Of a DNA stretch of 64,000 bases, positions 11,572-30,514 are shown one piece after another. Position 1 is the stretch's first letter, and the number at the start of each line of letters is the position of its first letter. The notes below the pieces were generated by a model. That model saw nothing but the letters and a program-made list of their open reading frames with translations. It ran no database searches and was not told the DNA's origin. Location of the stretch: the sequence record SRR22947727_339. One strand, written 5' to 3'. The position numbers and the translations under genes are program-made.

Positions 11572-11728
11572 GACGGGTTCAATTCCTTTTCCAGTGAATA
11601 GGTCCTTTCTTTTAAGTCGATCAGCATTCAAGATAGAAAATCTCGCGATTGAATAAAACTCATAACGTAAAGATAAGTATTCAATTCGAAGAATTCTCAT
11701 ATCTGGGGTCACAACAAAGGGATGAAAT

Positions 11729-12814: not shown

Positions 12815-13251
12815 GGCCGGCGTTTCACCAAACTGCTACAGGACAGCGTCGCCAGGATTTCGTTTTTCTGATTATAGACTTTATAGCCGATTTTGAGAAC
12901 GCCGCGATCAGGTTTAGAGCGTGACGGCGTCACCTCTAAAATTTCAGACACCAGATACATGTCATCGTCAGGGCGAAGCGGCGTAATAAGGCGAACCTTT
13001 TCGTATTCCAGCCCGCATATATAGGCGATGTCGCCATTAATCTCATCATCGAGCTTGCGCCAATAGGCCAGCGTATGGGTGCCGGACGCGATCAGTCCGC
13101 CAAATTGTGTGGCTTTGGCGGCTTCTTCATCGATGTGAAAAGGTTGTGGATCGAAAAAACTGGCAAATTTGATGATCTCCTCCTTGCTCACTCTCACCGA
13201 AGCCGAGGTTCGTTTTTCACCGATTTCAATATCTTCCAGATAGCGGGTCAT
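12811..13251 (-). CDS. MaoC-family (R)-hydratase/dehydratase
   Basis: YLEDIEIGE, FDPQPFHIDEEAAK, FGGLIASGTHT hydratase motif. Confidence 0.88.
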   Translation of the reverse strand: MTRYLEDIEIGEKRTSASVRVSKEEIIKFASFFDPQPFHIDEEAAKATQFGGLIASGTHTLAYWRKLDDEINGDIAYICGLEYEKVRLITPLRPDDDMYLVSEILEVTPSRSKPDRGVLKIGYKVYNQKNEILATLSCSSLVKRRP

Positions 13252-13355
13252 AATTTCGGCTCTAATCTACTCACTTATAAAATGCATTAATTGCATACTG
13301 CCTCACTGGCTTTAATCTGTTATATACGGATAACATAGAAGAAAGGACTCATGAC

Positions 13356-14531: not shown

Positions 14532-14555
14532 GCCTCGCCTGTTGAGTGACTAAGG

Positions 14556-15884
14556 CTATGCGATGGCATCGGTTTTTCGAGGCAAGAAGATAATAATGAA
14601 GCCGGCAATTAATGAGCCTCCGGCCATGATGATAGCTACAAGTTTGAGGTCCAGGCCTGCAGTAAATAAGAGACCTGGTATAAACGGGCCTAATACAGCT
14701 CCCCCTCTACCAATGCCGAGTACAAATCCTGACCCTGAACTTAATAGAGATGCTGGATAAGAGGCGACAAAAAGGCCGAAGAATCCTGAAATGGCTCCGA
14801 AAATAGCCACACCTGTAGCAAAGCCAACAATTTTCATATTCACAAGTGATCCAACGAAATAAGGGAAAAGAGCAACGCCAGCGGCCGAAGCTAATAAAGT
14901 GATCATCATAAGAGGCTTTACTGGAACAAGGCGGGCGATGAAGCCTACACCAATTGAACCGAAAACGCCGCCTAAGCTGATAATGCCCAAAACCATCGTG
15001 GCTTCAGATTTAGTATAGCCAAGGTCGGTGACAATTGTTGGTAGCCATTTTACAAAATAATAATAGGTACCAATATTCCCAAAATAAGCAAGCATAAGAA
15101 TGATTGTGACGAGCGCGGTTTGAGGCTTGAATAATGTAATGGGCGAAATTTTTTCTGCAGTATTTTGCGGAACAGGACCTAACGTATCAACAGGCTTATG
15201 ACCGATTTTCTGGAGTATAGCTTGAACCTTTTCAAGCGCACCTGTCGGACGTTTTCGGTTTAAATAGGAAATTGTTTCTGGGACGAAGACATACACAATC
15301 GGAATAAATAGTAAGCTCATTACGGCGCCAAGATGAAAAGTGATACGCCAATCATATTGTTTTAAAAGCGGTGCTAAAAAAGTTGCACCCAGATATATCC
15401 CAAAAGAATATCCGCCTGCAACCAGAATAACAGCGAGCGAGCGATTTTTATTGTTGCAAAACTCAGCCGCCGTTGTGGTGGCCGTCGCAAGTATTCCGCC
15501 TACGCCTATTCCAGTAATAATACGCCCTATCCCTAAGAGATAGACGTTAGGGGCAATTGCGGCTGCAAACATTCCAATAGTGACAAGTACCAGCGCAAAC
15601 AGGGTTGTCAGTTTTCTACCCATATTATCAGAAAATGAACCGAGACCAATCGACCCAAATGCCATGCCTAATAATTCCATCGGCAATATGACTCCCAGTG
15701 CGGCTTTACTGAGGCCCCATTCTTCAGTCATTCCAGGCGCTGCAAAACTTATTGAAAGTACGTCATATCCATCCAGGGCCAGAAGGCCCAAACAAATCAA
15801 GACAATCAACCACTGCGAAGCAGTCATCCTGCCTGTGTGGACAGCGTTAAGCGGGTTATTCGTACTGGTTTTTTCGTTATTCAT
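14556..15884 (-). CDS. MFS aromatic acid:H+ symporter (AAHS, PcaK/BenK-like)
   Basis: LDGYD in TM1 (AAHS signature), GSFSDNMGRK, GRIITGIGVGG, PET, GIGRGGAVLGP. Confidence 0.82.
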   Translation of the reverse strand: MNNEKTSTNNPLNAVHTGRMTASQWLIVLICLGLLALDGYDVLSISFAAPGMTEEWGLSKAALGVILPMELLGMAFGSIGLGSFSDNMGRKLTTLFALVLVTIGMFAAAIAPNVYLLGIGRIITGIGVGGILATATTTAAEFCNNKNRSLAVILVAGGYSFGIYLGATFLAPLLKQYDWRITFHLGAVMSLLFIPIVYVFVPETISYLNRKRPTGALEKVQAILQKIGHKPVDTLGPVPQNTAEKISPITLFKPQTALVTIILMLAYFGNIGTYYYFVKWLPTIVTDLGYTKSEATMVLGIISLGGVFGSIGVGFIARLVPVKPLMMITLLASAAGVALFPYFVGSLVNMKIVGFATGVAIFGAISGFFGLFVASYPASLLSSGSGFVLGIGRGGAVLGPFIPGLLFTAGLDLKLVAIIMAGGSLIAGFIIIFLPRKTDAIA

Positions 15885-15991
15885 TTAGTAATCCCTTACA
15901 TCTCGTCAAGTGCTCTAAGCTGCTTCTGGAATAAACTGTAGGTAATATCGGCAAAAGATTGGTGTGTTAAGAGGTTTTGGAACCCCCTATT

Positions 15992-17083
15992 TTATTGAAT
16001 GAATTGAGCGCGAAATTCCGTTGGGGTTTGTTCCGTCCATTTTTTGAAAGCACGTGAGAAGTTAGAAAAATCTGAGAAACCTAACAAGAATGCGACGTCA
16101 CCAACATTGTAACGCTCCTGACGTAAATATTGAGTCGCCAGTTTCAACCGTGTTTCATCGAGCAAATCCTGGTATGACGTACCGCCTTCAGACAATTTAT
16201 TATGAAAGGCTCTTACAGAAAATCCTAAAGCCTTTGCGACTGTAGCTTTACTATATTCACCCGTGGGCAGAAGTTCTAAAAGCTTATGACGTACTCTCAT
16301 CGGGACATCTGCTTTCGCCATGCGAGCTAAAATACCGAGGATGACCTCATCATTTTGTTGCGCAAGTCCTGCATTGGCTGTGGGTAGCGGGTGCTCCATG
16401 TCTTCTGGATGAAAATGCAAGGCGTACTTATTTGTGTTGTAGTCAATCGGGCAGTCAAAATATTCTTCTAGTCCGTTCTTGAAAGCTGGGCTCATTTCAA
16501 TATCGACTATTTTTATCAAGTTGGGTCTGAACTTTGGCCCATGCATTAACTCAATCATCCGGTTGATCCAGATGAGGCTCCCAACGGAAAACATCATATT
16601 TATGTAATCATCAGAGGTATTTCTTCTCTGCTGCACAATGAGGTGCGGACCCTCGGCATTATCAACAAACTCTATGCCATCTGCGGTCGAAATAAATGAC
16701 CAATAACGTTCGAATCGCTCGAGGAATTTACGGATGGTTCGACTGGAAAATAAGGCAAAGCCAAGAGCATTAAAGCACGAAGGTTGGATGAACTTTGCAG
16801 TGGTAAATATAAAGTTTTCATCTCCACTTGCCCGGATACTCTCTTTTAAGAGAGACGCATATTGTTGTCCGGAAATGCGAGATTCAGGTGTGTTCAAGTT
16901 GGAGTATGTAATGCCAGATTTTTCAAATACAGCGTCTGCATCTACGCCATATGTGCTGAGAGTCTGATGAATAATAATCGTCATTCCCCCAAAATGTGAG
17001 GGTACAGCATTTCTGATGATATGTGTTTCTTTTGACAAATAGGTTACATTATATGACTGATTCTTATTGCCGAATATAACCAA
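15992..17083 (-). CDS. AraC-family transcriptional regulator (OruR-like N-terminal domain)
   Basis: C-terminal double HTH (SYQDLLDETRLKLATQYL...VAFLLGFSDFSNFSRAFKKWT); true start uncertain. Confidence 0.85.
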   Translation of the reverse strand: MVIFGNKNQSYNVTYLSKETHIIRNAVPSHFGGMTIIIHQTLSTYGVDADAVFEKSGITYSNLNTPESRISGQQYASLLKESIRASGDENFIFTTAKFIQPSCFNALGFALFSSRTIRKFLERFERYWSFISTADGIEFVDNAEGPHLIVQQRRNTSDDYINMMFSVGSLIWINRMIELMHGPKFRPNLIKIVDIEMSPAFKNGLEEYFDCPIDYNTNKYALHFHPEDMEHPLPTANAGLAQQNDEVILGILARMAKADVPMRVRHKLLELLPTGEYSKATVAKALGFSVRAFHNKLSEGGTSYQDLLDETRLKLATQYLRQERYNVGDVAFLLGFSDFSNFSRAFKKWTEQTPTEFRAQFIQ

Positions 17084-17124
17084 TTATTGGGGCTTGTGAA
17101 GCCGTTATTTCTCGTTAAAATAAA

Positions 17125-17790
17125 GTGATGAAGCCCGTATCTAAACGCAGAAGTAATAAATTACGCCGCACAGAAAGTACGCACGCCGTTGAGAAAGCTG
17201 CCTGTCGTTTGTTTGTGGAGCGAGGATTTCGATCCACCTCAATGGATCTTATTGCCCGCGAAGTGGGGATGACTAAAGGTGCAATTTACTTTTATTATAA
17301 AGATAAGAATGCACTATTGCTGCATATTTTAAAGCAATCCCAGTCAGAATTTTCTGGGAAAATCTTCTCTGCGATAGATGATAAATCAGGCGCACCATCA
17401 GACCAAATAGATATTTTCCTTGATACCATCATTTGGGTTGGGGGTGAACTGGATCAATATCTTTTGCTATTGCCAGTCGTGATGGCCACTGAGTTCAAGG
17501 GCCGTGGGGATGACGTGGAAACAGCCGTAAAAGACATATATGAGCAGATGTATCAAAAATTGTCTGATGTTATTATCTCGGGTCAAAATAACGGGGAATT
17601 TGGATCAGAGCTACCCACGCGTTCATTGGCAACCATGATTGTCGCTTTGACGGATGGATTGCTGCTGGAAATTTATAGGCAATCAAGCGCTGTTTCAGGG
17701 AAAGAAATTGGGCGCGCTGCCCGCGTGATGGTGACCAATTTACTAGAAACAACCAATGGCGTTAAAGCGCCTACCAATACCTTAGAATAA
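17125..17790 (+). CDS. TetR/AcrR-family transcriptional regulator
   Basis: LFVERGFRSTSMDLIAREVGMTKGAIYFYYKDK HTH. Confidence 0.9.
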   Translation: MMKPVSKRRSNKLRRTESTHAVEKAACRLFVERGFRSTSMDLIAREVGMTKGAIYFYYKDKNALLLHILKQSQSEFSGKIFSAIDDKSGAPSDQIDIFLDTIIWVGGELDQYLLLLPVVMATEFKGRGDDVETAVKDIYEQMYQKLSDVIISGQNNGEFGSELPTRSLATMIVALTDGLLLEIYRQSSAVSGKEIGRAARVMVTNLLETTNGVKAPTNTLE

Positions 17791-18259
17791 ATCTTGCATC
17801 TGCAAGATGGTCACGCGTTTCCACATCATCAAAAGAGACATCATAATCAACTTCAATGCCCTTCCTGCGAGGTTTTACTGAGGTGATGGTTGAGGTCAGG
17901 TCAATTCTAGTACCCATATAAATAGGTCGGTAGATTTGAATATGTTCAATTTTTTTGACTAAAATATGTGGGACGTTTTGCATTTCGATGTGATCCCAAA
18001 ATACTTGAGGGTATAAGGACGGGATAAATAGTCCTGGCGTAATAAGTCCCTCTAGGCCCGATTTTCGACTACCTGCTATATCCCAATGCACCCATTCTTG
18101 GTTATTCACAGAAAGGCAATATTGCTGCATTTTCTCAGTCGTAATCTCTATTGGGTAAGAGGTGAATAAGGGTTTGTCCAAATGCTTTGCAAAGTCATCC
18201 AGACCGTTGATTTGAACTTTCTTTTTCATGGCCTTAACTAAGCATTGCATCATTCCCAT
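17771..18259 (-). CDS. Divergent MaoC/NodN-like hotdog-fold protein
   Basis: NNQEWVHWD...GLITPGLF resembles the MaoC DxxxxH...GxIAHG motif in degenerate form; start uncertain (possibly MKKKVQ). Confidence 0.6.
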   Translation of the reverse strand: MGMMQCLVKAMKKKVQINGLDDFAKHLDKPLFTSYPIEITTEKMQQYCLSVNNQEWVHWDIAGSRKSGLEGLITPGLFIPSLYPQVFWDHIEMQNVPHILVKKIEHIQIYRPIYMGTRIDLTSTITSVKPRRKGIEVDYDVSFDDVETRDHLADARFILRYW

Positions 18260-18325
18260 TGTAAAGCCCGTATTTTAAAAGTCAAAAGTTTTGCCTGATA
18301 TGCATTTCGCCGCAGGATAGTTCTA

Positions 18326-18364
18326 TTGACCTTTTTGAGTCTAAAACATACTTTAAGGTCAGTA
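18326..18364 (+). promoter_or_regulatory. Candidate sigma70 promoter/operator upstream of the paaA-like gene
   Basis: TTGACC (18326) N17 TACTTT; overlaps inverted repeat TGACCTT...AAGGTCA. Confidence 0.35.
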
Positions 18365-18383
18365 ATTGAACGGCGAGGTCAAA

Positions 18384-19340
18384 ATGGCAGAAGAAATGAA
18401 CGTCATGGTGGAAGCATCTAGTGACATTGAGGCGCAGCAGATCGAACGTATCGAAGCTGGCGAATTGTTTGAAAATGTAGAGGATTTATCTCCGGGTTAC
18501 CGAGAAGCATTGAAGCAAGTCATTCATATTGCTGCCATAAGCGAGGTTACTGTTTTGACATGGGCTCATACGGCCTATGATACGGCGCCTGACATCGGCG
18601 CAAAAATAGCGGTCTGTGCGACAATCCAAGATGAAGTCGGCCATGCTCATCAGCAGGGCCTTTTGGCTGAACGCTTTGATGTTGATATTCATGAGGGCAC
18701 GTTTCACGATGATATCGCCAAGATTTTCACATGGCCGATTATGGAAGTGCCAATTCGCAACTATGTCGAGTTCGTTGTCGCACAATGTCTTTTGGATAGA
18801 GCTGGACTTCACTGGACAAAAGATATCGAACTCCATTCAAGTTTTGCGCCCTATCGGCGAACTTTACGCAAGGTGAATTTTGAAGAAGGATTCCATATGC
18901 GGCATGGCGCACATTGGACGGAGTATTATTGGAACAAATCTGAGGAAACGAAGGCGGCCGTGCAAGAAGCTTTTGATTGGCTGTTCCCGCATGGCGTGAT
19001 GTGGTTTGGCAAACCCGATGATTTGAAATCACGCCCAGCGATGTTGCAATATCAAATCCGGAAATGGACGAACGATTTCATGCGAGAAAAGTGGTTGCAA
19101 TCAGCGTGTGCCTTTGCGGCCAAACACGGCATTAAAGTCCCAGCCGAGTATGATGAAGACCAGAAGAAATGGGTGCTAACTATGCCTTATCCCATGCTTT
19201 ACGATGCCGAAAACTACAGCTGGTCGCAGGAGCAATGTACCCAAAAGGAATATTGGTCAAATGCGCGAAAAGGCGGGCCAATGCGCCCAGAAGCCTATGA
19301 AAGGTTACGCCGTGAAGAATGGGGTGAAAAGCTATGGTAG
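18384..19340 (+). CDS. PaaA-like di-iron ring-epoxidase catalytic subunit (divergent)
   Basis: Ferritin-like ligand set SE...QDEVGH...LD...EEGFH, plus SFAPY, WFG, TND; ATG at 18384 behind GAGG. Confidence 0.8.
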   Translation: MAEEMNVMVEASSDIEAQQIERIEAGELFENVEDLSPGYREALKQVIHIAAISEVTVLTWAHTAYDTAPDIGAKIAVCATIQDEVGHAHQQGLLAERFDVDIHEGTFHDDIAKIFTWPIMEVPIRNYVEFVVAQCLLDRAGLHWTKDIELHSSFAPYRRTLRKVNFEEGFHMRHGAHWTEYYWNKSEETKAAVQEAFDWLFPHGVMWFGKPDDLKSRPAMLQYQIRKWTNDFMREKWLQSACAFAAKHGIKVPAEYDEDQKKWVLTMPYPMLYDAENYSWSQEQCTQKEYWSNARKGGPMRPEAYERLRREEWGEKLW

Positions 19341-19651
19341 CTCTCGCTGAACAAGTTTCTCATGCACTCGATCAAGTTCTCGACCCACATTTTAAAGTCG
19401 GGCTTAACGATATGGGCATGGTCACAGACATTGACCTAAAAGATAATGGCCAAGTCGAGCTAGGTATGCGTTGTCCTTGTATCGGCTGTCCTGCGTGGAA
19501 AATGATGCAACACAATGTGAAATCCAAAGTGAGTGAAATTGACGGTATTGAGAGCGTCAAAATTCGTGTGGATTGGGAGAAACCTTGGACCAGAGATGAT
19601 ATGAGCGAGGCGGCGCGTAGCAAAGCCCAATCTCATGGATACGTCATTTAG
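19334..19651 (+). CDS. DUF59/FeS_assembly_P protein (PaaD N-terminal-like)
   Basis: LDQVLDP...LNDMGMV...CIGCPA...PWT DUF59 motifs. Confidence 0.8.
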   Translation: MVALAEQVSHALDQVLDPHFKVGLNDMGMVTDIDLKDNGQVELGMRCPCIGCPAWKMMQHNVKSKVSEIDGIESVKIRVDWEKPWTRDDMSEAARSKAQSHGYVI

Positions 19652-19659
19652 GAATTATT

Positions 19660-19899
19660 ATGGCTAAGATTAAACAAGCGAGAGCTGGGGATAGAACCTT
19701 TGAAGTTTTTGGACGTGACCACGCAGAGCGGCCCTTGCAGCATCTGGGAACCGTCCGTGCTGAAAACAAACAACTGGCGATTGCCCATGCGCGCTTTGTC
19801 TATTCTGAACGTTTATGGGTAGAGATGTGTCTCTCACCCACGGATAGTTTTTCAGGCTGTATGGGGGCTGGGCAAGACGGTATGGTAGGTATGGCATAG
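19660..19899 (+). CDS. PaaB-like small subunit
   Basis: FEVFGR...LQHLGTVRA...AIAHARFVYSER mirrors the PaaB pattern EVF...HVGSLHA...AR..Y.RR. Confidence 0.7.
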   Translation: MAKIKQARAGDRTFEVFGRDHAERPLQHLGTVRAENKQLAIAHARFVYSERLWVEMCLSPTDSFSGCMGAGQDGMVGMA

Positions 19900-20129
19900 T
19901 GGGAACGCCTAACAAAAATCCTAAAAAGACAGGTCCTCTGGAACGTTTTTCTTCGGAATTTAACCGCCACGTTGCGTGTGCTTGGTGCAGTTCTGAAAAC
20001 ACTAAAATCTCGAGCCCTTTTGGCGGCACCGTGTCAGAAATTATTTTTACATGCGGTGATTGCGGGGAGACCTTTGGCTGGATGAAATGGGAAAACCGGC
20101 GTAGTACAACAGAGCGGGAAAAATTATGA
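19899..20129 (+). CDS. Stand-alone PaaD C-terminal zinc-ribbon protein
   Basis: CAWCSSENTKISSPFGGT...CGDCGETFGWMK matches PaaD C-terminal CxxC.S..T...S.FG.T...CxxC.E.F...K. Confidence 0.72.
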   Translation: MGTPNKNPKKTGPLERFSSEFNRHVACAWCSSENTKISSPFGGTVSEIIFTCGDCGETFGWMKWENRRSTTEREKL

Positions 20130-20971
20130 AAACCGATAACATAAGTCAGGCTCTACTTGGTGAGCTTCTTTGTATTTCAGATAGTAAATGGGTCCTTGGG
20201 CATTGGTATGTAAAGGTCATTCCAAACGGACGTTCCGTACCTGACTTTTCCTCTATGGCAGGCATGGCGCAAGATGAACTTGGTCAAACCCGGGCAATGC
20301 TGGATTATTTAGAACAGAGTTTTAATTTACCTGAAAACCAATTGGAGTTTGGGCGATCAATTGAGGACATTCACAGTATGGAATTACTCGACGCGTCTCC
20401 AAGAAATTGGGGTGATTTCGTCGTAACCGCTTTTCTAGCAGAGCAAGCCCTGTGGAGTGTTCTAGAAGGCTTTGTGGGTAGCTCGAATGTTGGACTTTCT
20501 AACATGTGTAAAAAATTCTCCGAAGAAGGCTATTTTCATCGGCTTTATGTAGATGGCTGGATGGAGGCTCTGACGGATGAGGAAAAACAAGATGCGATCA
20601 AGGCCATGCCGAAACGGCTCGCCCATGCGCGCCAATGGTTTAATTTTGGTTCCGATCTTTTAAATGAAAAAGACGTAAGGCCTTGGAGTGCATCGGAGTG
20701 CCGTGAGCATTTTGAACTCGGTCTTGGTAATTTGGCGAAGGCTTTGTCTTTGGGGCTGCCTAAGGCAAATGAGTTTTCTGGCAGTTGGGACGGAAGACGG
20801 CGCAGACCTGAAGGATCTGCTATGCCGGCCGGGCTGTGGGAATATGTTTTGCCAACGACCGAAGCTGCGCAGATGGCACGAAGACCATTGGCTGAAAGCG
20901 TTAAGGACAATATTGATCTCTTCGTGAAGTCGAAAAAAGTCGATAAGACGGAACCGTTTTTCGAGCAATAA
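20126..20971 (+). CDS. PaaC-like structural subunit of the epoxidase
   Basis: ISDSKWVLGH, AQDELGQTR (His to Gln as in PaaC), FGRS, NWGDF, EEGYFH. Confidence 0.75.
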   Translation: MKTDNISQALLGELLCISDSKWVLGHWYVKVIPNGRSVPDFSSMAGMAQDELGQTRAMLDYLEQSFNLPENQLEFGRSIEDIHSMELLDASPRNWGDFVVTAFLAEQALWSVLEGFVGSSNVGLSNMCKKFSEEGYFHRLYVDGWMEALTDEEKQDAIKAMPKRLAHARQWFNFGSDLLNEKDVRPWSASECREHFELGLGNLAKALSLGLPKANEFSGSWDGRRRRPEGSAMPAGLWEYVLPTTEAAQMARRPLAESVKDNIDLFVKSKKVDKTEPFFEQ

Positions 20972-20974
20972 CAC

Positions 20975-21295
20975 ATGGTCAAAATTTTATTCAAACTTCG
21001 TGATGGCGTAGATCACTCTGTTGAGATTGAAGCCGGCTATTCCGTGATGGAAGCCGCCTATAATAATATGTTGCCAGGTATAGAAGCGGAATGCGGCGGC
21101 GGGGCGGCCTGCGCAACATGTCATGTTTATATTGCACCAGAATGGGAAGCAAAATTGCCGCCTATAGCCGATATTGAAGATGCTATGTTGCTGAGTGCTA
21201 ACGACCGGAGATCCAATAGCCGTCTGTCTTGTCAAATACATGTCACGGAAGACATGGATGGGCTCTCTGTTGAAGTTGCGGATAATGATATATGA
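20975..21295 (+). CDS. 2Fe-2S ferredoxin, adrenodoxin/putidaredoxin type
   Basis: SVMEAA, ECGGGAACATCHVY, SRLSCQ. Confidence 0.92.
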   Translation: MVKILFKLRDGVDHSVEIEAGYSVMEAAYNNMLPGIEAECGGGAACATCHVYIAPEWEAKLPPIADIEDAMLLSANDRRSNSRLSCQIHVTEDMDGLSVEVADNDI

Positions 21296-21392
21296 GAGCT
21301 TTAGGCGGCAATTGACAATGGCTTTGCAGAATTTGATTTTCGATTGAATGACCTTTTTGCTTTCATAGAGAAAAGCAAAAGAAGGAGATGTT

Positions 21393-22565
21393 GTGTCATT
21401 AGCAATTATTGGCTGCGCCGAAGTTCCAACAAAGCGCGATCCAGAGCGTAAACGATGGGATATTTTAAAAGATGTTTGCGTAAGAGCCATCCAAGATGCC
21501 GGAATAAGTAAAGACGATATCGAAGCGGTACTGTCGGTCAATCCAATGGCGCAACCTTCAATGGCACTGGATATGGCGCTGGGCCGAATCCCAGAGACGC
21601 TTGGGCTTAAGGGATGCAAAGATATATGTGTCCTAAATGCTGGCGGAGCCTCAACAACGAATTGTCTGCGTCTTGCTAAATCATTCTTAGATAGCGGTTG
21701 GGCCAAGTTTGTTCTCATACCGCACGTCACCGTTCAATCAGATATCTCAACAGAGGCTTTAATCAATTTCTTTGCGACAGCGCCTTTAGATCCCGAATGG
21801 GAATATCCTTATGGCGTAACATTTAACGGAGCTATGGGCCTCATTACAAACCGTTACATGCATGAAACAGGTACAACTCCTGAAGAAATGGCGTCAGTAA
21901 GTGTAGGATTGCGCGGCTGGGCAGCCCTTGACCCTATGTCTATTTTTCATGGGAAACCCGTAACGCTCGAGGATGTCTTGAATTCGCGTATGATTTCTAC
22001 ACCGCTACATTCCAAAGAATGTAACTTCCTTGCGGATGGCGGCGGCGCTCTTGTCGTTACGACTCATGAAATCGCTAAAGAAATGGGCAGACCAGCCGCT
22101 TATGAACTTGGTCATGATATGGCATTCATGGGAGCGACACCGGTACTACGGAGTGACGTTTTCTCAAGAGAAGCCTATCGCAGCTCAAGTCGGGGGGCTC
22201 TGGAGAAAGCTGGGCTAGGCATCAATGACATGGACCTACGCCAGATATATGGAGCTTATCCATATACCCAGTGTTCAGCTCTCGAAGGGTATGGCATCTG
22301 CGAAATAGGTGAAGCCGGTAAATTATGGGCCAGCGGTGAATGCGGCCCAGGCGGCTCATTGCCCTGTACGACAATGGGGGACGCAACAGGCCGAGGGCAT
22401 ACGGGCTCAGGCGTTTCTATGGCTTTTTACATTGATACATTCCGTCAAATTCGCGGTGATACGGGTGAGCGGCAAGTAAAAGACTGTGAGCATGCTATCA
22501 TTACAACGGCTGGAGGGTCAGTTATGAACGCGTGTACGACGATTTACGGAAGGAGCGCGACATGA
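21393..22565 (+). CDS. Thiolase-fold protein of SCP-x/Ltp2 type lacking the nucleophilic Cys
   Basis: AIIGCAE, LNAGGAS (no Cys at the NACAS position), EDVLNSRMISTPL, DGGGA, QIYGAY, QIRG...RQV; GTG start after AAGGAG. Confidence 0.8.
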   Translation: MSLAIIGCAEVPTKRDPERKRWDILKDVCVRAIQDAGISKDDIEAVLSVNPMAQPSMALDMALGRIPETLGLKGCKDICVLNAGGASTTNCLRLAKSFLDSGWAKFVLIPHVTVQSDISTEALINFFATAPLDPEWEYPYGVTFNGAMGLITNRYMHETGTTPEEMASVSVGLRGWAALDPMSIFHGKPVTLEDVLNSRMISTPLHSKECNFLADGGGALVVTTHEIAKEMGRPAAYELGHDMAFMGATPVLRSDVFSREAYRSSSRGALEKAGLGINDMDLRQIYGAYPYTQCSALEGYGICEIGEAGKLWASGECGPGGSLPCTTMGDATGRGHTGSGVSMAFYIDTFRQIRGDTGERQVKDCEHAIITTAGGSVMNACTTIYGRSAT

Positions 22566-22975
22566 GTGAATATCTAAAACCGTTACCGGTCATTCAGTCA
22601 TTCTCGCAACCTTTTTGGGATGCGGCCAAAGACGGCAAACTTCTCGTGCAAAAGTGTAATAGCTGCGGTTCTTCCATTTTCTTCCCAAGAGATCGGTGCC
22701 CTGAATGTTGGTCAGAAGATTTGGGCTGGATCGAAGCTAGCGGAAAGGGAGAGATCTATGCCTTTTCCGTTACCTATGAAGGCGTTGAAAAAGCTTTCAA
22801 AGAGGATCTGCCAATTGTTCTCGCATGGATTGATTTGCCGGAAGGCATAAGAATGCAAACGAATATTATCGACTGTAATCCCGATGATGTTTCTATCGGT
22901 ATGGCTGTGGAAGTAACGTTCAAAAAAGCCACTGATGATATTAACCTTCCATATTTCAAACCTGTGAGCGGTTAG
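22562..22975 (+). CDS. DUF35 Zn-ribbon/OB-fold protein
   Basis: PFWDAA, QKCNSCG..FFPR.RCPEC, SGKGEIY, IDLPEG, IGMAVEV; ATG at 22562 overlapping the thiolase stop. Confidence 0.9.
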   Translation: MSEYLKPLPVIQSFSQPFWDAAKDGKLLVQKCNSCGSSIFFPRDRCPECWSEDLGWIEASGKGEIYAFSVTYEGVEKAFKEDLPIVLAWIDLPEGIRMQTNIIDCNPDDVSIGMAVEVTFKKATDDINLPYFKPVSG

Positions 22976-23539
22976 GTGAGCGAGCCTAGCTGGGGCAAAT
23001 GGGGCACATGGGAGGACGCTGAGAGTTTTGTGGGAAAGACTGTTGGTGTAACTCGTTCCCCTGATGCCGTTGAACTTGGTGCAATAAGGCGCTGGCTAGA
23101 ACCTAAAGAGTTTGATTGCGCGCTACATACCGATTTGTCAGCGGCTAAGGCAGCTGGCTATAGAGATATAATAGCACCAAATACGATGGCATTTACATAT
23201 GGAATTGGACCTTATTGGGCACCGGAAGATGGGTTGTCCAAACCGGGATATGAACCTCGGCAAATATCGATTCCTGTTATTTTTGATGTTCCAGCGCCCT
23301 GCAAGCTCAGCTTTGCGACCAGTGTTGAGATTGAGTTTTTTGACCCGATTTATGTTGGTGATCAGATCACCTGTACATCAAAACTTATCAGCTTGGTAAA
23401 GAAAGAGCTTCGCGTTGGGGCGGGAGCCTTCTTTAAGCAAGAAGACACATATACCAATCAAGACGGAGGCGTGGTCGCGATAGCGCATCTCGATATTTTC
23501 CGGTTTAATCCACCCGAGGGAAAAAAGAGTGCATCATGA
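22976..23539 (+). CDS. MaoC-like dehydratase (FAS1-N/ChsH-type hotdog)
   Basis: VELGAIRRW, AAKAAGYRDIIAP, EFFDPIYVGD, NQDG. Confidence 0.75.
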   Translation: MSEPSWGKWGTWEDAESFVGKTVGVTRSPDAVELGAIRRWLEPKEFDCALHTDLSAAKAAGYRDIIAPNTMAFTYGIGPYWAPEDGLSKPGYEPRQISIPVIFDVPAPCKLSFATSVEIEFFDPIYVGDQITCTSKLISLVKKELRVGAGAFFKQEDTYTNQDGGVVAIAHLDIFRFNPPEGKKSAS

Positions 23540-23919
23540 AAGTCGGTGATACACTCCCAGAAATTTCAATCCCGATAACGCTACATCGTCTTGTTATGGA
23601 AGCAGGCGCTAATCGTGACCTGTCGATGATTCATCATGATACAAAGATCGCGCAAGCAACGGGCGCGCCGGATGCCTATGCTAACACATTTTTCCTGATG
23701 GGCATGTTCGAGCGGCAGCTCCGCGAGTTTATTGGCGTTACTGGCCGCATCAAAAAAATTGGCCCGATGCAGATGAAGACATTTAACTGTGTGGGTGATG
23801 TGCTGGTTTTCAAAGCCACCATCAAAGACGTGGTCGGCAATATGGTGTCTATCGAACAAATCGTCGAAAGCGAACGCGGCGTTACAACGGTTTGTAGGTC
23901 TAAAGTGGAAGTCGGTTGA
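23536..23919 (+). CDS. MaoC-family hydratase (catalytic partner)
   Basis: VGDTLP, NRDLSMIHHD (DxxxxH), GAPDAYAN. Confidence 0.8.
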   Translation: MKVGDTLPEISIPITLHRLVMEAGANRDLSMIHHDTKIAQATGAPDAYANTFFLMGMFERQLREFIGVTGRIKKIGPMQMKTFNCVGDVLVFKATIKDVVGNMVSIEQIVESERGVTTVCRSKVEVG

Positions 23920-24197
23920 CTTGCCTTCTCGTTGGTCAAGTCATTGTAAAAAATGACACCTTGTGGAAGCAATATGTAAATGGCGTGAGTAAATCTCTTG
24001 AACCATTCAATGCTTTAATACTCTTCCGTGGCCAAAAATCACAGGTCTTAGCCGGTGAAAACCCAACTGATTTAATAGTGACTATTTCTTTTGAAATACG
24101 AGAAGAAATAGATGTCTGGTTCAATAGCGATTTATACCAAAAACTTATTCCTTTGCGCGACGAAGCGGCAGACGTCATTATAACCACCTATGTTTGA
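23916..24197 (+). CDS. DUF1330-like dimeric alpha/beta-barrel protein
   Basis: 93 aa, LFRG...LAGE...ISF...WFNS.LYQ.LIPLRD. Confidence 0.7.
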   Translation: MTCLLVGQVIVKNDTLWKQYVNGVSKSLEPFNALILFRGQKSQVLAGENPTDLIVTISFEIREEIDVWFNSDLYQKLIPLRDEAADVIITTYV

Positions 24198-24242
24198 TGA
24201 GCGGTTGGGATATTGCTCTGAGGGCGAACGCCAGCTTGCAGG

Positions 24243-25313
24243 TCAACGGTTGTAATTTAAATCATATTGGTCGGCATAGGCAAATAGCGCAGGTAGGCCG
24301 CCCGTGTGAATAAACACGATTTTCTTGTCCGCCGAGATCAGACTTTTTCGAATATGATCGATCAACCCGCCCAGGGCCTTTGATGTATAGACCGGATCCA
24401 ATAGAACCCCGTCATGTTTCCCAGCTAGAGTTATTGCCTCAAGGCCACCCTCGGAAACTTTTCCGTATCCCGGATAAACGTAATTTGTGTGCACAGTCAC
24501 ATCATCTTCGGTCAATCTTGTTTCAATGCCCAGATGTTCGGCGCATTCATTGCCCACGTCGACAAAAGCCTGTTCAAAAGTCTTTCCTGCTTGAAGCGGG
24601 GTTTCAAGGCTGGAGACGCAGACCGGTTTTATGGACGAGTTCATATGTTTTAGTGCCAGAACGATCCCGGCATAGGTCATGTCGGAAGAACATACCCAGA
24701 GCTCATCCAGTCTAACGCCGGTGTGGTCGGCCTGATCCAGCAATTCGATCATCGCAGCCACATAGCCCACGGAATATTCCCCGACCTTGCTCTCATTGCC
24801 GAGACGTTCAACCAATACTTTCTTGCCCTGACTTTTTAGTTCCTCTGCTTTGTCGCGAACGAGCTGACCATATTCCGTCCAGGGTCCGTCAAATTCAACT
24901 AAAGTCACACGAGCACCGACCAACAGGTCGAGTAGCAATCCGCCCTCAATTGTCTCATCTCGTTTTCCGCGAACCTTATTGAGCACGAGATGGCATTCCA
25001 GCCCGAGCTTGGAACAGGCGGCCGCCAGTTGACGGCAATAATTGGACTGAACAGCGGCGCCGGCGACAACCGTGTCAAAACCCCGGGCAATTGCGCTCCC
25101 TAAAATATATTCAAACATTCGGGTTTTGTTGCCGCCCATGGCAAGCCCGGTCATATCATCGCGTTTGATCCAAATCTCTGGCCCGCCAAGCTCGCGGCTT
25201 AATCCCGGCATTGATTGAAAAGGCGTTGGCAGGCAGGCGAGCGAAACGTGCGGCAAGGCGCCGAGCGCATTTTCAAGAACTTTAATTTTATTTTTATTGC
25301 GCGGATTGAGCAT
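24243..25313 (-). CDS. PLP-dependent D-cysteine desulfhydrase / cysteate sulfo-lyase family enzyme
   Basis: IKRDD, GGNKTR (PLP Lys), QSN, LDPVYTSK and IHTGG (Thr/Thr rather than the Glu/Leu of ACC deaminase). Confidence 0.85.
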   Translation of the reverse strand: MLNPRNKNKIKVLENALGALPHVSLACLPTPFQSMPGLSRELGGPEIWIKRDDMTGLAMGGNKTRMFEYILGSAIARGFDTVVAGAAVQSNYCRQLAAACSKLGLECHLVLNKVRGKRDETIEGGLLLDLLVGARVTLVEFDGPWTEYGQLVRDKAEELKSQGKKVLVERLGNESKVGEYSVGYVAAMIELLDQADHTGVRLDELWVCSSDMTYAGIVLALKHMNSSIKPVCVSSLETPLQAGKTFEQAFVDVGNECAEHLGIETRLTEDDVTVHTNYVYPGYGKVSEGGLEAITLAGKHDGVLLDPVYTSKALGGLIDHIRKSLISADKKIVFIHTGGLPALFAYADQYDLNYNR

Positions 25314-25479
25314 TTTCGGCCTAGCTGAGTTGAGTTCCTAAAATGGCGGAAAGCTGCAAATTTGCGAAGGTCATATTCGGCCAATTGTCTGTCACAAATG
25401 GTAAGGCCTTCAGTCAATGATTGAATTCATCCCAGCTATCATACATGCTGGATCAAGATAGAGGTTTTGGGAAAGCATA

Positions 25480-26598
25480 ATGGGATATTACAAGTTCATG
25501 GAACGTTCGGCGTCTCGAATTGATTTCGATCTATCGCCCGCGCAGGAAGAGCACGCCAGGCAGTTGCATAGCGAAATTCTAGTCTTTGACGGGCTGATGG
25601 AATGTAGCTGGTATGACGGATTGGTGACCCAGTTAAAGCGCGGCGGGACCACGGCGGGGAGTCTTTCCATTGGCAATTTTGGCTATCATCGCTGGCAAGG
25701 GAAAACAGAGGATATAGACGCGCGCCTGGATGATTGGTGGAGCGCCGATACGCTTTTTTCCGACATTGGATTTGTGAACGCCAAAATATCCGAGCATTCG
25801 GATGATCTTGTGCTTTGCCTGAACTCCGCTGATATTGCTCAGGCAAAAAAGGACGGCAAAGTCGGCATCATGCTCGATGTTCAAAACACGGAGTTTGCAG
25901 GCAAAGACCCGGACCGGCTGGAGACGTTTTACAATCTTGGTCTTCGCCGGGCCCAGCTCACCTATAATATGACGGTTCCGGCAGGCGCTGGCTGTATGGA
26001 GACCCGTAATTCTGGGCTTTCAAATTTTGGCGCAGACATGATCGAAAAAATGAACGAAATCGGCATGCTCGTTGATACGGGGCATTGTCATTCCTCTACT
26101 CTAATGGACGCGCTGGATGTCTCGCAGGTTCCGATCACCTGCTCTCATGCCGGCATGGCATCGAGATGCAAGAACCCGAGAACACAGACCGATGAAGCTC
26201 TGGTAAAACTCGCGGACAATGGCGGCGTGTTTGGTATCGTCAGTACGCCGGGCGCTATTACAGGCACAGATAAATGTTCGGTCAAAGACTATGTCGAGAC
26301 CATTGATGCCGCCGTCAATCTGATCGGTGTTGACCATGTCGGATTCGGGTCCGATTTTTCTCTGGCGGCTTCGGTTGAGGAAATCATGACCGCGCCCGAA
26401 TGGAATGACAAACTTCGCGAAGCTGTTGGCGTGAATGTACAGGTCTGGCCATGGTCAGACGGGCATAAGGGTTTTGAGAATAATTCCGGATATCCCAATT
26501 TAACCCGGGGGCTGGTTGCCAAAGGCTATGCAGATGAAGATATCTCCAAAATCATGGGCGGTAACTTTATCCGTTTGATCAAAGACGTGATTGGGTAA
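25480..26598 (+). CDS. Membrane dipeptidase (M19) family amidohydrolase
   Basis: QLTYN, GLSNFG, VDTGH, SH, GVDHVGFGSDF, IMGGNFIRL. Confidence 0.85.
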   Translation: MGYYKFMERSASRIDFDLSPAQEEHARQLHSEILVFDGLMECSWYDGLVTQLKRGGTTAGSLSIGNFGYHRWQGKTEDIDARLDDWWSADTLFSDIGFVNAKISEHSDDLVLCLNSADIAQAKKDGKVGIMLDVQNTEFAGKDPDRLETFYNLGLRRAQLTYNMTVPAGAGCMETRNSGLSNFGADMIEKMNEIGMLVDTGHCHSSTLMDALDVSQVPITCSHAGMASRCKNPRTQTDEALVKLADNGGVFGIVSTPGAITGTDKCSVKDYVETIDAAVNLIGVDHVGFGSDFSLAASVEEIMTAPEWNDKLREAVGVNVQVWPWSDGHKGFENNSGYPNLTRGLVAKGYADEDISKIMGGNFIRLIKDVIG

Positions 26599-26600
26599 AC

Positions 26601-27878
26601 TCACCGGAACCGTGACAAAAGATAGTCATCGGCCAGAAGCTGTAAATTCGTGTCCGGTTTAGTCCCCAGGATTTGATGCGACAATAGCCGGGCGGACCCG
26701 GCCGCCAAGGTCCATCCCATCCAGCCATGACCAGTGTTTAAGAAAACACCGGGAATTTTTGTGGGCCCGATGAGAGGGACGCCATCAACATTCATAGGCC
26801 TGAACCCGACCCACGGTGTCTGGTTTTCGATGTGCGGCCTGACATTTACGCCGGGGAATACTTCGTCAAAGCAGCGATAGGCCCGATCCCAAAACTCTGT
26901 GGGCGTACTGAAATCAAGCCCCGAAAATTCCGCGCCGCCGACCCACCGCAGTTTTTTATCGCCAAACGGATTGAACCCGCTTTTCGTGCCAATATCGACG
27001 ATAGGACAATTGGGTTTCACCGGAAAGTCATCCATGGGGATTGTAAAGGAGAACCCTTTGGCGGGCTTCATCGGCAGGCGTATGCCCAGCATTTTTGCCA
27101 GTGCCGGACTGCCATTGCCCGCGGCAATCACCAGTCGGTCGAACGCTTTTGTGCCGGATTTGGTTTTGACTGTAGGATTGCCCTCTGACGCCGCGAGGTT
27201 TTCAACCTTGGTCCCATAAGAAAATGTGACGCCTTGCTCGGCTAAATAGGCTGCCAAGCCGATGCAAAACTGATGACTATCGCCGGATTTATCGGCGGCA
27301 AGCAATAGCGCGCCGGCGAGTTTATGCTCAATGGATTTCAGGCTTGGCTCATAGGCGATGGTCTCGCTTGCATCCAAAATTTTCACGGTGTCAGGATCTG
27401 GTGCAAGCTGACGTGCCATTTGACCATGGGTTTTCAGAGCCGCTTCATCTTCAAAAATTTCAAGAAAGCCCCGATCGACATAGGCGCAGTCAATGCTGGT
27501 TTCATCCAGCAAGGATTCCAGACTGTTTTTGGAATACGCCGCCAGTCTCTGGTTTTTTTGTGTGAGCCTGACAAAGTCGGTTTCATTGGCATATTTTAAA
27601 AACTTCGCGCCCCAAGGCACCATGCCCGGTAGCGCGCTCAGCTTGAACCGGATGGGCGCAGTTTCGGGGCTGAGCAGCGATGACAAAAACATCTTGAGCG
27701 AGCCGGGCGCATTCCAGACCGTCGGCATGGTATAGCTAAAACAGCCGCCATTTCCCAGGCTGGTGACCATGCCCGGGCTCTCTTCGCGCTCAAACACTGT
27801 AATTTCGTGGCCCGCTTTGTTGAGATAATGGGCCGTGCACAGCCCAATGACACCGGCGCCTATGATGGCGGTCTTCAT
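26601..27878 (-). CDS. D-amino acid dehydrogenase, DadA-like FAD enzyme
   Basis: IIGAGVIG, TSLGNGG, PAKGFS, GFRP, NTGHGWMGWTLAAGSA. Confidence 0.85.
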   Translation of the reverse strand: MKTAIIGAGVIGLCTAHYLNKAGHEITVFEREESPGMVTSLGNGGCFSYTMPTVWNAPGSLKMFLSSLLSPETAPIRFKLSALPGMVPWGAKFLKYANETDFVRLTQKNQRLAAYSKNSLESLLDETSIDCAYVDRGFLEIFEDEAALKTHGQMARQLAPDPDTVKILDASETIAYEPSLKSIEHKLAGALLLAADKSGDSHQFCIGLAAYLAEQGVTFSYGTKVENLAASEGNPTVKTKSGTKAFDRLVIAAGNGSPALAKMLGIRLPMKPAKGFSFTIPMDDFPVKPNCPIVDIGTKSGFNPFGDKKLRWVGGAEFSGLDFSTPTEFWDRAYRCFDEVFPGVNVRPHIENQTPWVGFRPMNVDGVPLIGPTKIPGVFLNTGHGWMGWTLAAGSARLLSHQILGTKPDTNLQLLADDYLLSRFR

Positions 27879-30346: not shown

Positions 30347-30514
30347 AGCCCCTCTTTTGCTCTGTTGCATAAAAACATCACTTAGGTCTTTTTTTTTCGT
30401 GATAACACATTTGACTACAATATTGCCTCTATTGATTGGATTTGACTCAATCTCTCATTATTCTTGAAATCAGAATATATTTCTAAGAATTATCACAAAA
30501 GGGGAATACAGGTC

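Follow-up and report, generated by a model that had tools for sequence, protein, structure and literature searches.

A conserved, apparently undescribed gene cluster of marine bacteria joins a divergent PaaA-type di-iron oxygenase to a predicted hydratase/aldolase pair

The DNA analysed here is a stretch of 64,000 nucleotides from sequence record SRR22947727_339, referred to below as the window. Between positions 18384 and 24197 it carries a block of eleven plus-strand genes, which represents a conserved and apparently undescribed cluster of marine bacteria: a divergent PaaA-type di-iron oxygenase joined to a predicted hydratase/aldolase pair. A preliminary description of this DNA, made from its letters alone, had listed eleven co-oriented genes; all of them are present at the coordinates it gave, and Pfam and NCBIfam scans bear out the families that it named (Table 1). 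We tentatively favour the reading that the cluster encodes a coenzyme A (CoA)-dependent, aerobic and ferredoxin-driven pathway, in which an acyl-CoA, probably of the arylacetyl type, would be oxygenated, hydrated and cleaved by a retro-aldol reaction to acetyl-CoA.

The block opens at ATG 18384, with a GCGAGG ribosome-binding-like site ahead of it, and its final stop codon ends at 24197. Neighbouring genes overlap or are separated by no more than 9 nt, the sole exception being a 97-nt gap ahead of the thiolase-like gene. This layout is best explained as one operon-like block of two putative modules, a Paa-type oxygenase and a unit resembling ChsH1/ChsH2-Ltp2.

The oxygenase module begins with a cassette of five genes, encoding PaaA-like, DUF59, PaaB-like, Zn-ribbon and PaaC-like proteins. 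As in PaaABC(D)E of E. coli and Pseudomonas (PDB 3pvr/3pw1), the A and C subunits belong to a single Pfam family, both lying above the gathering score of 28.5 bits for PF05138 (PaaA_PaaC). The set of A, B and C subunits with a DUF59/Zn-ribbon maturation factor is also the same, and the substrate is presumably a CoA thioester here too. The nearest solved relative of the PaaA-like protein is E. coli PaaA (E = 2.6e-13), at an identity of about 25%. Every subunit nevertheless falls below the Paa equivalog cut-offs. The PaaA-like protein scores 88.2 bits against TIGR02156 (PaaA; cut-off 280), the PaaC-like protein 46.3 bits against TIGR02158 (cut-off 133.35) and the PaaB-like protein 23.7 bits against TIGR02157 (cut-off 85.45). 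For the PaaD model TIGR02159 (cut-off 108.15), the DUF59 protein covers model positions 8-87 only (51 bits) and the Zn-ribbon protein positions 100-144 (28.5 bits); the latter protein also weakly matches a 56-aa haloarchaeal 'PaaE' model. No NCBIfam BoxB match was obtained for the PaaA-like protein at E <=0.01, TIGR02156 and TIGR02158 alone being listed. Scores for the PaaA model in 201 genomes sampled from the class are cleanly two-peaked, with 19 true PaaA proteins at 495-552 bits and all other matches at or below 101 bits.

A quick maximum-likelihood tree (IQ-TREE, 65 rows) places PaaA-like proteins (25 rows, Shimodaira-Hasegawa-like approximate likelihood ratio test (SH-aLRT) support 96), PaaA (17 rows, 99), PaaC-like proteins (99) and PaaC (100) in separate clades; long branches meet in this tree, so we claim the separation of the clades and not their rooting. 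The divergence from PaaA that the preliminary description had suspected is borne out, with the protein lying outside bona fide PaaA in a clade of its own.

The residues around the active site tell the two families apart as well. According to the accessible part of PMC4498308, the di-iron ligands of PaaA are Glu42, Glu72, His75, Asp126, Glu155 and His158, Lys68 forms a 'lysine bridge' with Glu49, and Phe108 positions the phenylacetyl group. The iron ligands of the PaaA-like protein, E60, E90, H93, D144, E174 and H177, are kept in 77-78 of 78 family members. Lys68, Glu49 and Phe108, present in 17/17 canonical PaaA proteins, are replaced: across the PaaA-like family (n = 78) the Lys68 column holds Thr in 66, Ser in 6 and Ala in 6 members, the Glu49 column Ala in 74 and the Phe108 column Met in 74. 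The PaaC-like protein of the window has K, E, Q, E, G and H in these ligand columns, an incomplete di-iron site.

The proteins that would serve the oxygenase are arranged differently from those of PaaABC(D)E. PaaD is divided over two genes, for a DUF59 and a Zn-ribbon protein, which enclose the PaaB-like gene, and a free ferredoxin, whose top NCBIfam match is ISC-type Fdx (46 bits, under the cut-off), stands in place of the PaaE reductase. A class IA reductase of the PaaE kind (FAD/NAD plus 2Fe-2S) was found in none of the 57 window ORFs (open reading frames) scanned, and none appeared among the neighbour-gene clusters scanned in related loci, where many neighbouring ORFs are unannotated. Because both PaaE and the lysine bridge are lacking, the electrons would be expected to come from a ferredoxin. 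The inventory of the preliminary description, correct for the block and its flanks, had missed this question of electron supply, as well as an IOR-family oxidoreductase and a flavin mononucleotide (FMN)-dependent dehydrogenase elsewhere in the window.

Its statement that the window lacks paaE, paaG, paaZ, paaF, paaH, paaK and paaX agrees with our Pfam scan, in which crotonase, aldehyde dehydrogenase, 3-hydroxyacyl-CoA dehydrogenase and FNR-type reductase domains occur in 0/57 window ORFs (ORFs overlapped by longer ones were left out). The window does carry three generic AMP-binding ligases, a second thiolase of the SCPx type (35626-36858) and a 4HBT thioesterase. A canonical paa operon was likewise not found in the nearest genome, G001 (1.8 Mb, 97% complete, marine). 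G001 is not the window's own assembly; its locus (L001, L002) shows 97-100% protein identity over the genes covered, from the TetR gene to the thiolase-like gene. Its PaaA/PaaC-family content is this single pair, and its best matches to PaaE (41.7 bits, cut-off 420.8), PaaK (19.8, cut-off 646.3), PaaG (154.8, cut-off 345.15) and PaaZ (100.7, cut-off 562.8) all stay below the cut-offs. By the scans of the window and of G001, the system is thus without the PaaG, PaaZ, PaaK, PaaF, PaaH and PaaJ partners of the Paa pathway.

These comparisons bear on the view that the enzyme is a divergent but true phenylacetyl-CoA 1,2-epoxidase, serving a phenylacetate pathway remodelled so that MaoC proteins and the aldolase stand in for PaaG, PaaZ and PaaJ. 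PF05138 membership and the four-subunit synteny would fit it, as would the aromatic-acid-type MFS transporter of the window and the public pipelines, which label relatives PaaA or 'phenylacetic acid catabolic protein'. A MaoC protein at 12811-13251 has the C-terminal MaoC (hydratase) domain of PaaZ as its sole NCBIfam match (45.2 bits), and in locus L063 an aldehyde dehydrogenase gene lies between two MaoC genes, resembling a split PaaZ. IOR-family enzymes convert arylpyruvates to arylacetyl-CoA, which could supply the substrate; the window IOR reaches the subfamily model only. Such an epoxidase is hard to reconcile with all five Paa equivalog cut-offs being far from reached, with the separate clade, with Met for the phenylacetyl-orienting Phe108 in 74/78 members alongside the Lys68 to Thr and Glu49 to Ala replacements, and with the absence of a PaaK-type ligase from G001. 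In the 201-genome sample, moreover, G112, G094 and G189 have a true PaaA plus an extra sub-cut-off PF05138 match outside the paa locus; these extra matches are not assigned to the PaaA-like family, and none of them passed the search for PaaA-like proteins. We consider a true phenylacetyl-CoA epoxidase quite improbable; the comparisons support a divergent oxygenase that is not a bona fide PaaABCDE.

The second module follows the ferredoxin gene. Its thiolase-fold protein matches PDB entries 4u4e, 7yvy, 9myr, 6ok1 and 7pxp, and its solved relatives include the BbsB thiolase and 6ok1, deposited as 'lipid-transfer protein', which we take to be Ltp2 with the ChsH2 DUF35 domain. Gly85 aligns with the GG of 6ok1, 4u4e and 9myr and with the Cys of 'aaCaSgg' in 7yvy, presumably the thiolase nucleophile to judge from the C-x-S-G motif. 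The position is Gly in 29/29 orthologues. The label 'Cys-less thiolase' used in the preliminary description therefore holds for the nucleophile, which Gly85 replaces, and not for the whole protein, which has 12 other Cys. Catalytic tyrosines of Ltp2 were reportedly described by Aggett and colleagues in 2019; here Tyr286, which is invariant, falls on the Tyr of 'lYdhf' in 6ok1, and His336 sits at the Tyr of 'eaYihg'. The DUF35 gene, which likely starts at ATG 22562, is free-standing.

The MaoC1 protein has no canonical Asp-x4-His motif and gives weak PDB matches to ChsH1/ChsH2. MaoC2 matches HadB (37 bits) and ChsH chains (31 bits) in the PDB, and its Asp28 and His33 are invariant in 23/23 orthologues. 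The pair is best explained as a heteromeric MaoC hydratase, with one subunit predicted to carry the Asp/His dyad and the other to lack it. The last gene of the block, a DUF1330 gene, had been counted as part of the system and does not belong to its conserved core: a BLAST homologue is found in 0/79 related loci, and the domain occurs in the single scanned member of a neighbour-gene cluster found in 8 loci.

The closest parallels for this module are ChsH1-ChsH2-Ltp2, acting on the actinobacterial steroid C17 side chain, and Shy-Sal, acting on proteobacterial bile acids. In both, an enoyl-CoA is hydrated and then cleaved aldolytically, DUF35 tethers the aldolase, and the inert hydratase partner makes room for bulky rings, as set out in the accessible part of PMC11321319. 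The window module shares with them the MaoC pair with one dyad-less subunit, and with Ltp2 (6ok1) the Gly at the nucleophile position and a DUF35 protein with a four-Cys ribbon; an acyl-CoA dehydrogenase (ACAD) also precedes the module in several genomes. It differs in that DUF35 has a gene of its own and is not part of the hydratase, in that the thiolase-like protein scores only about 95 bits with 6ok1 and has His336 where Ltp2 has Tyr, and in its linkage to a di-iron oxygenase and not to steroid genes, in a marine lineage whose nearest genome has 1.8 Mb.

Scanning a single genome of each species with the PaaA-like protein as seed yielded 80 related loci. The majority are labelled as marine Gammaproteobacteria (Halieaceae/Luminiphilus, Woeseiaceae, Arenicella, metagenome-assembled genomes (MAGs) of Pseudomonadales, and strain HTCC2080, which is L058), and a few as Burkholderiales, Alphaproteobacteria, Sulfobacillus or Mycobacterium. 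Loci L001-L003, from the same or nearly the same population as the window, were left out; 79 loci have the PaaA-like gene, and 46 have at least 8 kb on each side. The neighbour counts below refer to the 10-kb flanks of these 46 loci. The five-gene cassette is intact in all of them (46/46), and its most constant partner is the divergently oriented MaoC gene (42/46). The full set of thiolase-like, DUF35, MaoC and MaoC genes accompanies it in 21/46, with 2 more cut at the edge of the locus. Another 15 of the 46 cassette genomes have no orthologue of the thiolase-like protein (best match <=36% identity), and in 8 others an orthologue (72-77% identical) lies outside the 10-kb flank, at distances of about 29, 45 and 226 kb in three of these genomes. 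Among 401 sampled genomes of the class, the PaaA-like protein (E <=1e-40) is present in 3, and the family is thus rare within the class; the thiolase-like orthologue occurs in G001 only, and in 0/398 class genomes without the cassette.

The reverse test was a metagenome scan seeded on the thiolase-like protein, which returned 57 loci. Five loci with 96% or more identity to the window were left out, as was one that lacked a usable match; of the 51 that remained, 16 have at least 8 kb on each side. The four-gene set is together in all 16, and at least three of the five cassette genes lie within 10 kb in 15 (the exception is L156). The modules are joined in at least seven arrangements: the hydratase/aldolase genes may stand directly after the PaaC-like gene, after the ferredoxin gene, after a co-directional MaoC gene or in convergent orientation, or the order ACAD-thiolase-like-DUF35-MaoC-MaoC may precede the cassette, with or without a molybdenum (Mo) enzyme gene between. 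The module directly follows the PaaC-like gene, on the same strand, in the window and 19 Halieaceae-type loci. The linkage is conserved, as the preliminary description had supposed, but it is one-sided: the aldolase module is a dedicated yet optional accessory of the cassette. That description's choice of the aldolase module as the defining partner did not survive the counts, which give this place to the divergent MaoC and leave a third of the well-flanked cassette genomes without any aldolase orthologue.

Some of the loci are unusual in their own right. A DDE transposase gene (DUF4372 + DDE_Tnp_1) is inserted directly upstream of the PaaA-like gene in a Halieaceae MAG (L044, 8641-9861). The cassette, 54-58% identical to that of the window, also lies on contigs labelled Nitrosopumilus and Fonsibacter (L042 and L050), and L003, with a 100% identical PaaA-like match, bears an alphaproteobacterial genus label while its nearest tree relative is labelled Arenicella; mis-binning or mislabelling is the likely cause of these odd labels.

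The one-sidedness invites the view that two separate pathways merely share a catabolic island, the oxygenase and the divergent MaoC acting on one CoA ester, while ACAD, MaoC, MaoC, thiolase-like and DUF35 proteins shorten the side chain of another compound, perhaps an acid that is alicyclic, isoprenoid or steroid-like, on the pattern of the igr operon. The module is indeed self-contained, often with an ACAD gene of its own in front (L009, L016, L021, L024, L029 and L104); it is distant from the cassette in the three genomes named above and missing from 15/46. The window is also rich in other acyl-CoA genes, and G001 has 9 Rieske-domain and 15 crotonase-type matches elsewhere. We nonetheless hold two independent pathways to be unlikely, given the cassette within 10 kb in 15/16 thiolase-seeded loci, the lack of any orthologue in the 398 class genomes without a cassette, the position of the module directly behind the PaaC-like gene in the window and the 19 Halieaceae-type loci, and the seven or more independent arrangements that hold the two together.

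The block is part of a larger conserved system, in which the divergent MaoC, AMP ligases (35/46) or a CoA-transferase (21/46), ACADs (28/46), an FMN 2-hydroxyacid dehydrogenase (15/46) and an IOR recur with it. In the pathway that we favour, a carboxylic acid would be converted to its CoA ester by a ligase or transferase, or a 2-oxoacid would be decarboxylated to the acyl-CoA by the IOR, which would reduce ferredoxin in the same step. The ferredoxin would feed the di-iron centre, which would oxygenate the acyl-CoA at or beside a ring or a tertiary carbon beta to the thioester. The MaoC proteins would then add water to the oxygenation product, and the thiolase-fold/DUF35 aldolase would split the resulting beta-hydroxyacyl-CoA into acetyl-CoA and a carbonyl product. 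As a proposed source of both acyl-CoA and reduced ferredoxin, the IOR is an attractive donor because it would reduce ferredoxin while making the acyl-CoA; its homologue lies no more than 10 kb from the thiolase-like gene in 14/16 well-flanked loci of the reverse test.

As the substrate we consider most likely an aryl- or heteroaryl-acetyl-CoA, either different from the phenylacetyl-CoA of PaaA or bound in another way. What speaks for the arylacetyl type is the only chemistry known for the family, together with the families of the IOR and of the MFS transporter, the PaaZ-like match of the MaoC protein at 12811-13251 and the aldehyde dehydrogenase between the two MaoC genes of L063.

Several observations weigh against this scheme. 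The ferredoxin gene is present in only 22/46 loci, mostly on the opposite strand, and the IOR in only 8/46 of those centred on the PaaA-like gene, usually near or beyond the 10-kb limit. Because 15/46 cassette genomes have no thiolase-like orthologue and 8 have a distant one, the oxygenase would in many genomes have to do without the aldolase. There is no ACAD in the Halieaceae operons, so that the source of an enoyl-CoA for the hydratase is not evident, and a BisC-family Mo S/N-oxide reductase (23/46), amidohydrolases and DUF2817 proteins recur with no role in the scheme, which also leaves the YkvI-like membrane proteins without one. The related loci are also not independent, many coming from the single family Halieaceae, and the members of both modules are known from gene sequence alone. 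Finally, G001 contains no intradiol, LigB-type or homogentisate dioxygenase, its sole catechol-2,3-dioxygenase match being one of 26 bits.

The BisC-family Mo enzyme, together with a pyridoxal phosphate (PLP) enzyme of Cys/Met type (L005-L018) and a GcvT-like gene, had also brought an organosulfur substrate (dimethylsulfoniopropionate, methylthiopropionate or a sulfoxide) into consideration. It was set aside because neither the GcvT nor the PLP genes are kept with the cassette across loci and nothing ties the di-iron oxygenase to such chemistry.

An aliphatic substrate is a further alternative. The enzyme would then be a hydroxylase or desaturase of a branched or beta-oxidation-blocked acyl-CoA, from which the hydratase and aldolase remove beta-branched units; an alpha-oxidation loop is conceivable, in which 2-hydroxylation, the thioesterase, the FMN 2-hydroxyacid dehydrogenase and the IOR would yield the acyl-CoA minus one carbon and reduced ferredoxin. 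The recurrence of the thioesterase, FMN dehydrogenase, IOR and a RidA-like gene in the neighbourhoods is consistent with this, as are the lack of a dedicated reductase, the classical ring-cleavage dioxygenases not found in G001 and a carboxylase of the branched-acyl-CoA type at the window end. To our knowledge, and in the literature searched, no PF05138 member acts on aliphatic CoA esters, however; a non-catalytic hydratase partner and a DUF35/aldolase pair are best known from bulky cyclic substrates, and the MFS and IOR families suggest aromatic acids. An aliphatic role therefore seems to us rather improbable.

The favoured pathway can be taken a step further, to a third aerobic 'hybrid' aryl-CoA pathway, though we regard this extension as doubtful. 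The IOR would convert an arylpyruvate, derived from an amino acid (for example indole-3-pyruvate or 4-hydroxyphenylpyruvate), to an arylacetyl-CoA, and the ferredoxin reduced in this step would drive the reductase-less oxygenase. The latter would dearomatise or oxygenate the ring carbon that bears the side chain, and after hydration by the MaoC proteins and cleavage by the aldolase the side chain would be released as acetyl-CoA.

Removal of a side chain in this manner has a precedent in ibuprofen degradation by IpfABDEF (Sphingomonas Ibu-2, Rhizorhabdus wittichii MPO218), where, according to the accessible part of PMC9195938, IpfDE releases propionyl-CoA from a dihydrodiol-CoA. The shared logic is CoA activation, oxygenation of the side-chain-bearing ring carbon and retro-aldol cleavage by a thiolase-like/DUF35 pair. 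The Ipf route, however, uses a Rieske dioxygenase and leads through a catechol to extradiol cleavage, whereas the window encodes a di-iron oxygenase and MaoC hydratases; IpfD and IpfE are here likened by description and not by sequence. G001 has no clear ring-cleavage dioxygenase, and an Ipf-like route ending in catechol would have no obvious continuation there, since the classical enzymes were not found. The other known di-iron aryl-CoA epoxidase is BoxAB, which is followed by hydrolytic ring opening, and the accessible part of PMC4498308 names only Paa and Box as systems of this kind. BoxB is monomeric, without B and C subunits, and works with the 4Fe-4S reductase BoxA and the crotonase BoxC; the PaaA-like protein has no NCBIfam BoxB match. 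The system may thus be viewed as a hybrid: like Paa and Box it would oxygenate a CoA ester with a di-iron enzyme, and like ChsH-Ltp2 and IpfDE it would split off an acyl-CoA by a retro-aldol reaction. Its equivalog scores, separate clade, replaced lysine bridge and Phe108, and lack of PaaE and of the Paa partners set the cassette apart from PaaABCDE and BoxB. We take it to be a third conserved di-iron lineage beside Paa and Box, with a different predicted electron supply and a dedicated candidate aldolase module.

Table 1. Features of the window, with positions, strand and the matches on which the assignments rest.
Positions	Strand	Predicted product	Match	Remarks
385-1491	-	Family III CoA-transferase	PF02515, 256.8 bits	
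1488-1916	-	4HBT thioesterase	PF03061, 49.9 bits	
1913-5380	-	IOR-family 2-oxoacid:ferredoxin oxidoreductase	NF009589, 1494.8 bits (cut-off 816)	1155 aa
5377-6534	-	FMN-dependent 2-hydroxyacid dehydrogenase	PF01070, 427 bits	
6537-7685	-	Second acyl-CoA dehydrogenase	ACAD domains	
12811-13251	-	MaoC hydratase	PF01575, 58.2 bits	DPQPFH motif
13356-14531	+	Acyl-CoA dehydrogenase	Three ACAD Pfam domains	
14556-15884	-	MFS transporter	TIGR00895 (aromatic acid/H+ symporters), 277.6 bits (cut-off 418.55)	
15992-17083	-	AraC-family regulator	PF12625 + PF12833	Found in 20/46 loci
17125-17790	+	TetR-family regulator	PF00440, 57.8 bits	Homologue in 24/46 loci
17771-18259	-	Divergent atypical MaoC protein	PF01575, 29 bits	
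18384-24197	+	Eleven-gene block	ORF listing, Pfam and NCBIfam scans	All genes on + strand
18384-19340	+	PaaA-like catalytic di-iron subunit	PF05138, 119.5 bits	318 aa from ATG 18384; ORF opens at TTG 18366
19334-19651	+	DUF59 protein, N-terminal half of split PaaD	PF01883 (FeS_assembly_P/DUF59), 56.5 bits	
19660-19899	+	PaaB-like bridging subunit	PF06243, 29.4 bits (cut-off 27)	Marginal match
19899-20129	+	Free-standing PaaD-type Zn-ribbon protein	PF23451 (Zn_ribbon_PaaD), 47.9 bits	Four Cys: 27, 30, 52, 55
20126-20971	+	PaaC-like structural subunit	PF05138, 59.7 bits	
20975-21295	+	2Fe-2S ferredoxin	PF00111 (Fer2), 43.4 bits	C40-x5-C46-x2-C49-x36-C86
21393-22565	+	Thiolase-fold protein without nucleophilic Cys	Thiolase_C_1, 113 bits	Ltp2/Sal-like candidate aldolase
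22532-22975	+	Free-standing DUF35 protein	PF01796, 68.4 bits; PF12172, 54.6 bits	ChsH2 OB + zinc ribbon; Cys 42, 45, 56, 59
22976-23539	+	MaoC-type hot-dog subunit (MaoC1)	PF13452 (FAS1_DH_region), 64.7 bits	ChsH2/HadA-like partner
23536-23919	+	MaoC-type catalytic subunit (MaoC2)	NCBIfam HadB, 38.7 bits; no Pfam match	HadB/ChsH1-like
23916-24197	+	DUF1330 protein	PF07045, 49.4 bits	Lineage-specific tail of the block
40175-41281	+	YkvI-like membrane protein, candidate transporter	No Pfam match	
43333-45006	+	AMP-forming acyl-CoA ligase	PF00501, 292.9 bits	

The genes flanking the block are those that had been described, namely TetR, AraC, two further MaoC genes, an acyl-CoA dehydrogenase and an MFS transporter with aromatic acid/H+ symporters as its best family (Table 1). 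In the divergent MaoC protein, His58, Trp56 and Asp60 are invariant (66/66), the usual Asp is replaced by Asn or Gln in 65/66, and Glu or Asp stands two residues on in 66/66. The MFS transporter has the PcaK and MhpT models as next best matches and a homologue in just 2/46 loci. Orthologues of the ACAD at 13356-14531, with 61-70% identity, occur in L004, L038, L059, L062, L065 and L070, while a homologue of the second ACAD is the one that directly precedes the thiolase-like gene in the six loci with the ACAD-thiolase-like-DUF35-MaoC-MaoC order. The FMN dehydrogenase has a homologue in 8/16 thiolase-seeded loci as well. None of the neighbour genes compared with NCBIfam names reaches a curated equivalog cut-off; the model that the IOR passes is a subfamily model.

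The divergent intergenic region of 124 bp before the PaaA-like gene contains, within 18326-18382, one copy of the heptamer TTGACCT and two of its reverse complement; the TetR or AraC regulator may use these repeats as its operator. A consensus scan of 17000-24600 for promoters and terminators was uninformative, yielding 11 and 5 sites where shuffled sequences would give 13.1 and 8.2. Four marine metatranscriptome runs from one study contain 94-97% of the sampled window words, and their contigs, one of which spans 13272-22559, cover 12500-25500 evenly across both gene orientations and intergenic DNA. Because DNA in the libraries may explain it, this coverage shows neither transcription nor an operon.

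Further from the block, the YkvI-like protein is 44-48% identical to 'unk377' genes of 14 loci, inside Paa-like clusters, and reaches a feature score of 0.98 with YkvI-family clusters; the ligase encoded at 43333-45006 is 59-67% identical to ligases in L059, L076, L023, L075, L025, L021, L048 and L068. Since both genes have homologues inside Paa-like clusters elsewhere, the functional island may span about 47 kb. The region 30464-47326, in which they lie, holds a second plus-strand acyl-CoA cluster with a TonB-dependent receptor, a DUF5938/saccharopine-dehydrogenase-like protein, the three AMP ligases, the SCPx-type thiolase (with a Thiolase_N match), an MFS protein, EthD, two short-chain dehydrogenases/reductases, an M19 dipeptidase and an Asp/Glu-racemase-family protein. 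At 9310-12814, two DUF2817 paralogues surround the GcvT-like aminomethyltransferase, which best matches sarcosine-oxidase alpha-type and demethylase models, all below cut-off; in Halieaceae-type loci DUF2817 is paired with an ACS-type MFS gene beside the cluster. Directly behind the block, 24243-29203 encodes a PLP enzyme of the D-cysteine desulfhydrase/D-cysteate sulfo-lyase family, an M19 dipeptidase, a D-amino-acid dehydrogenase-like protein and another DAO protein, and these amino-acid genes are kept with the cassette in just 0-3/79 loci. From 48001 to 64000 the GC content falls from about 0.49 to 0.34-0.43, and the gene content shifts to sugar genes (GH3, FGGY kinase, LacI, sugar porter), along with an autotransporter of 1077 aa whose N-terminus is trypsin-like. 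At 61144-63998 a TetR gene precedes genes for the carboxyltransferase subunit of an acyl-CoA carboxylase and for a biotin carboxylase, the latter cut off by the window end after its start; such a pair is typical of branched (methylcrotonyl/geranyl-type) acyl-CoA carboxylases. In G001, contig C7 has six crotonase-type, three Rieske-domain and one MaoC match as well as the sole, weak extradiol-dioxygenase-like match, and may be a second large catabolic island.

More distant relatives were found in a plasmid collection (Agrobacterium, Thermus and haloarchaea). All relatives of the PaaA-like protein there are below 60% identity, with 33-37% among the 20 matches listed; the thiolase-like protein has no match of at least 60% and reaches at most 38% among the 25 listed, and no characterised orthologue was found in the collection. 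The Agrobacterium plasmid cassette L103 has the same order of PaaA-like, Fe-S-assembly, small hypothetical and PaaC-like proteins, again with no annotated reductase, next to an AMP-binding protein, a CoA-transferase and a PaaI thioesterase. Unlike the window, it has no annotated thiolase-like/DUF35/MaoC module or Zn-ribbon gene. These plasmid cassettes are separate PF05138 subfamilies, likewise uncharacterised. In the literature searched, which did not extend to supplementary tables, we found no description of the cassette or of its link to DUF35/thiolase-like genes and no paper joining DUF35 with PaaA; the 'PaaA-like' literature concerned microcin C, archaeal ubiquitin-like proteins and microcystin, with none on the present system. 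The accessible parts of a 2026 survey of paa pathways and of a Halieaceae genomics paper do not mention it.

The carriers of the cluster are abundant coastal Gammaproteobacteria, labelled Halieaceae/Luminiphilus, Woeseiaceae and Arenicella. According to the accessible part of PMC13558084, marine surveys count paaABCDE orthologue groups as phenylacetate degradation; if members of the PaaA-like family fall into these groups, they may inflate such counts. Should the arylpyruvate-based hybrid pathway prove true, the cluster would represent an oxidoreductase-oxygenase couple that primes itself, with an aromatic acid undergoing C-C cleavage of the Ltp2 type. And if the substrate is an algal or amino-acid-derived aromatic acid, these bacteria would add a further route to marine carbon turnover.

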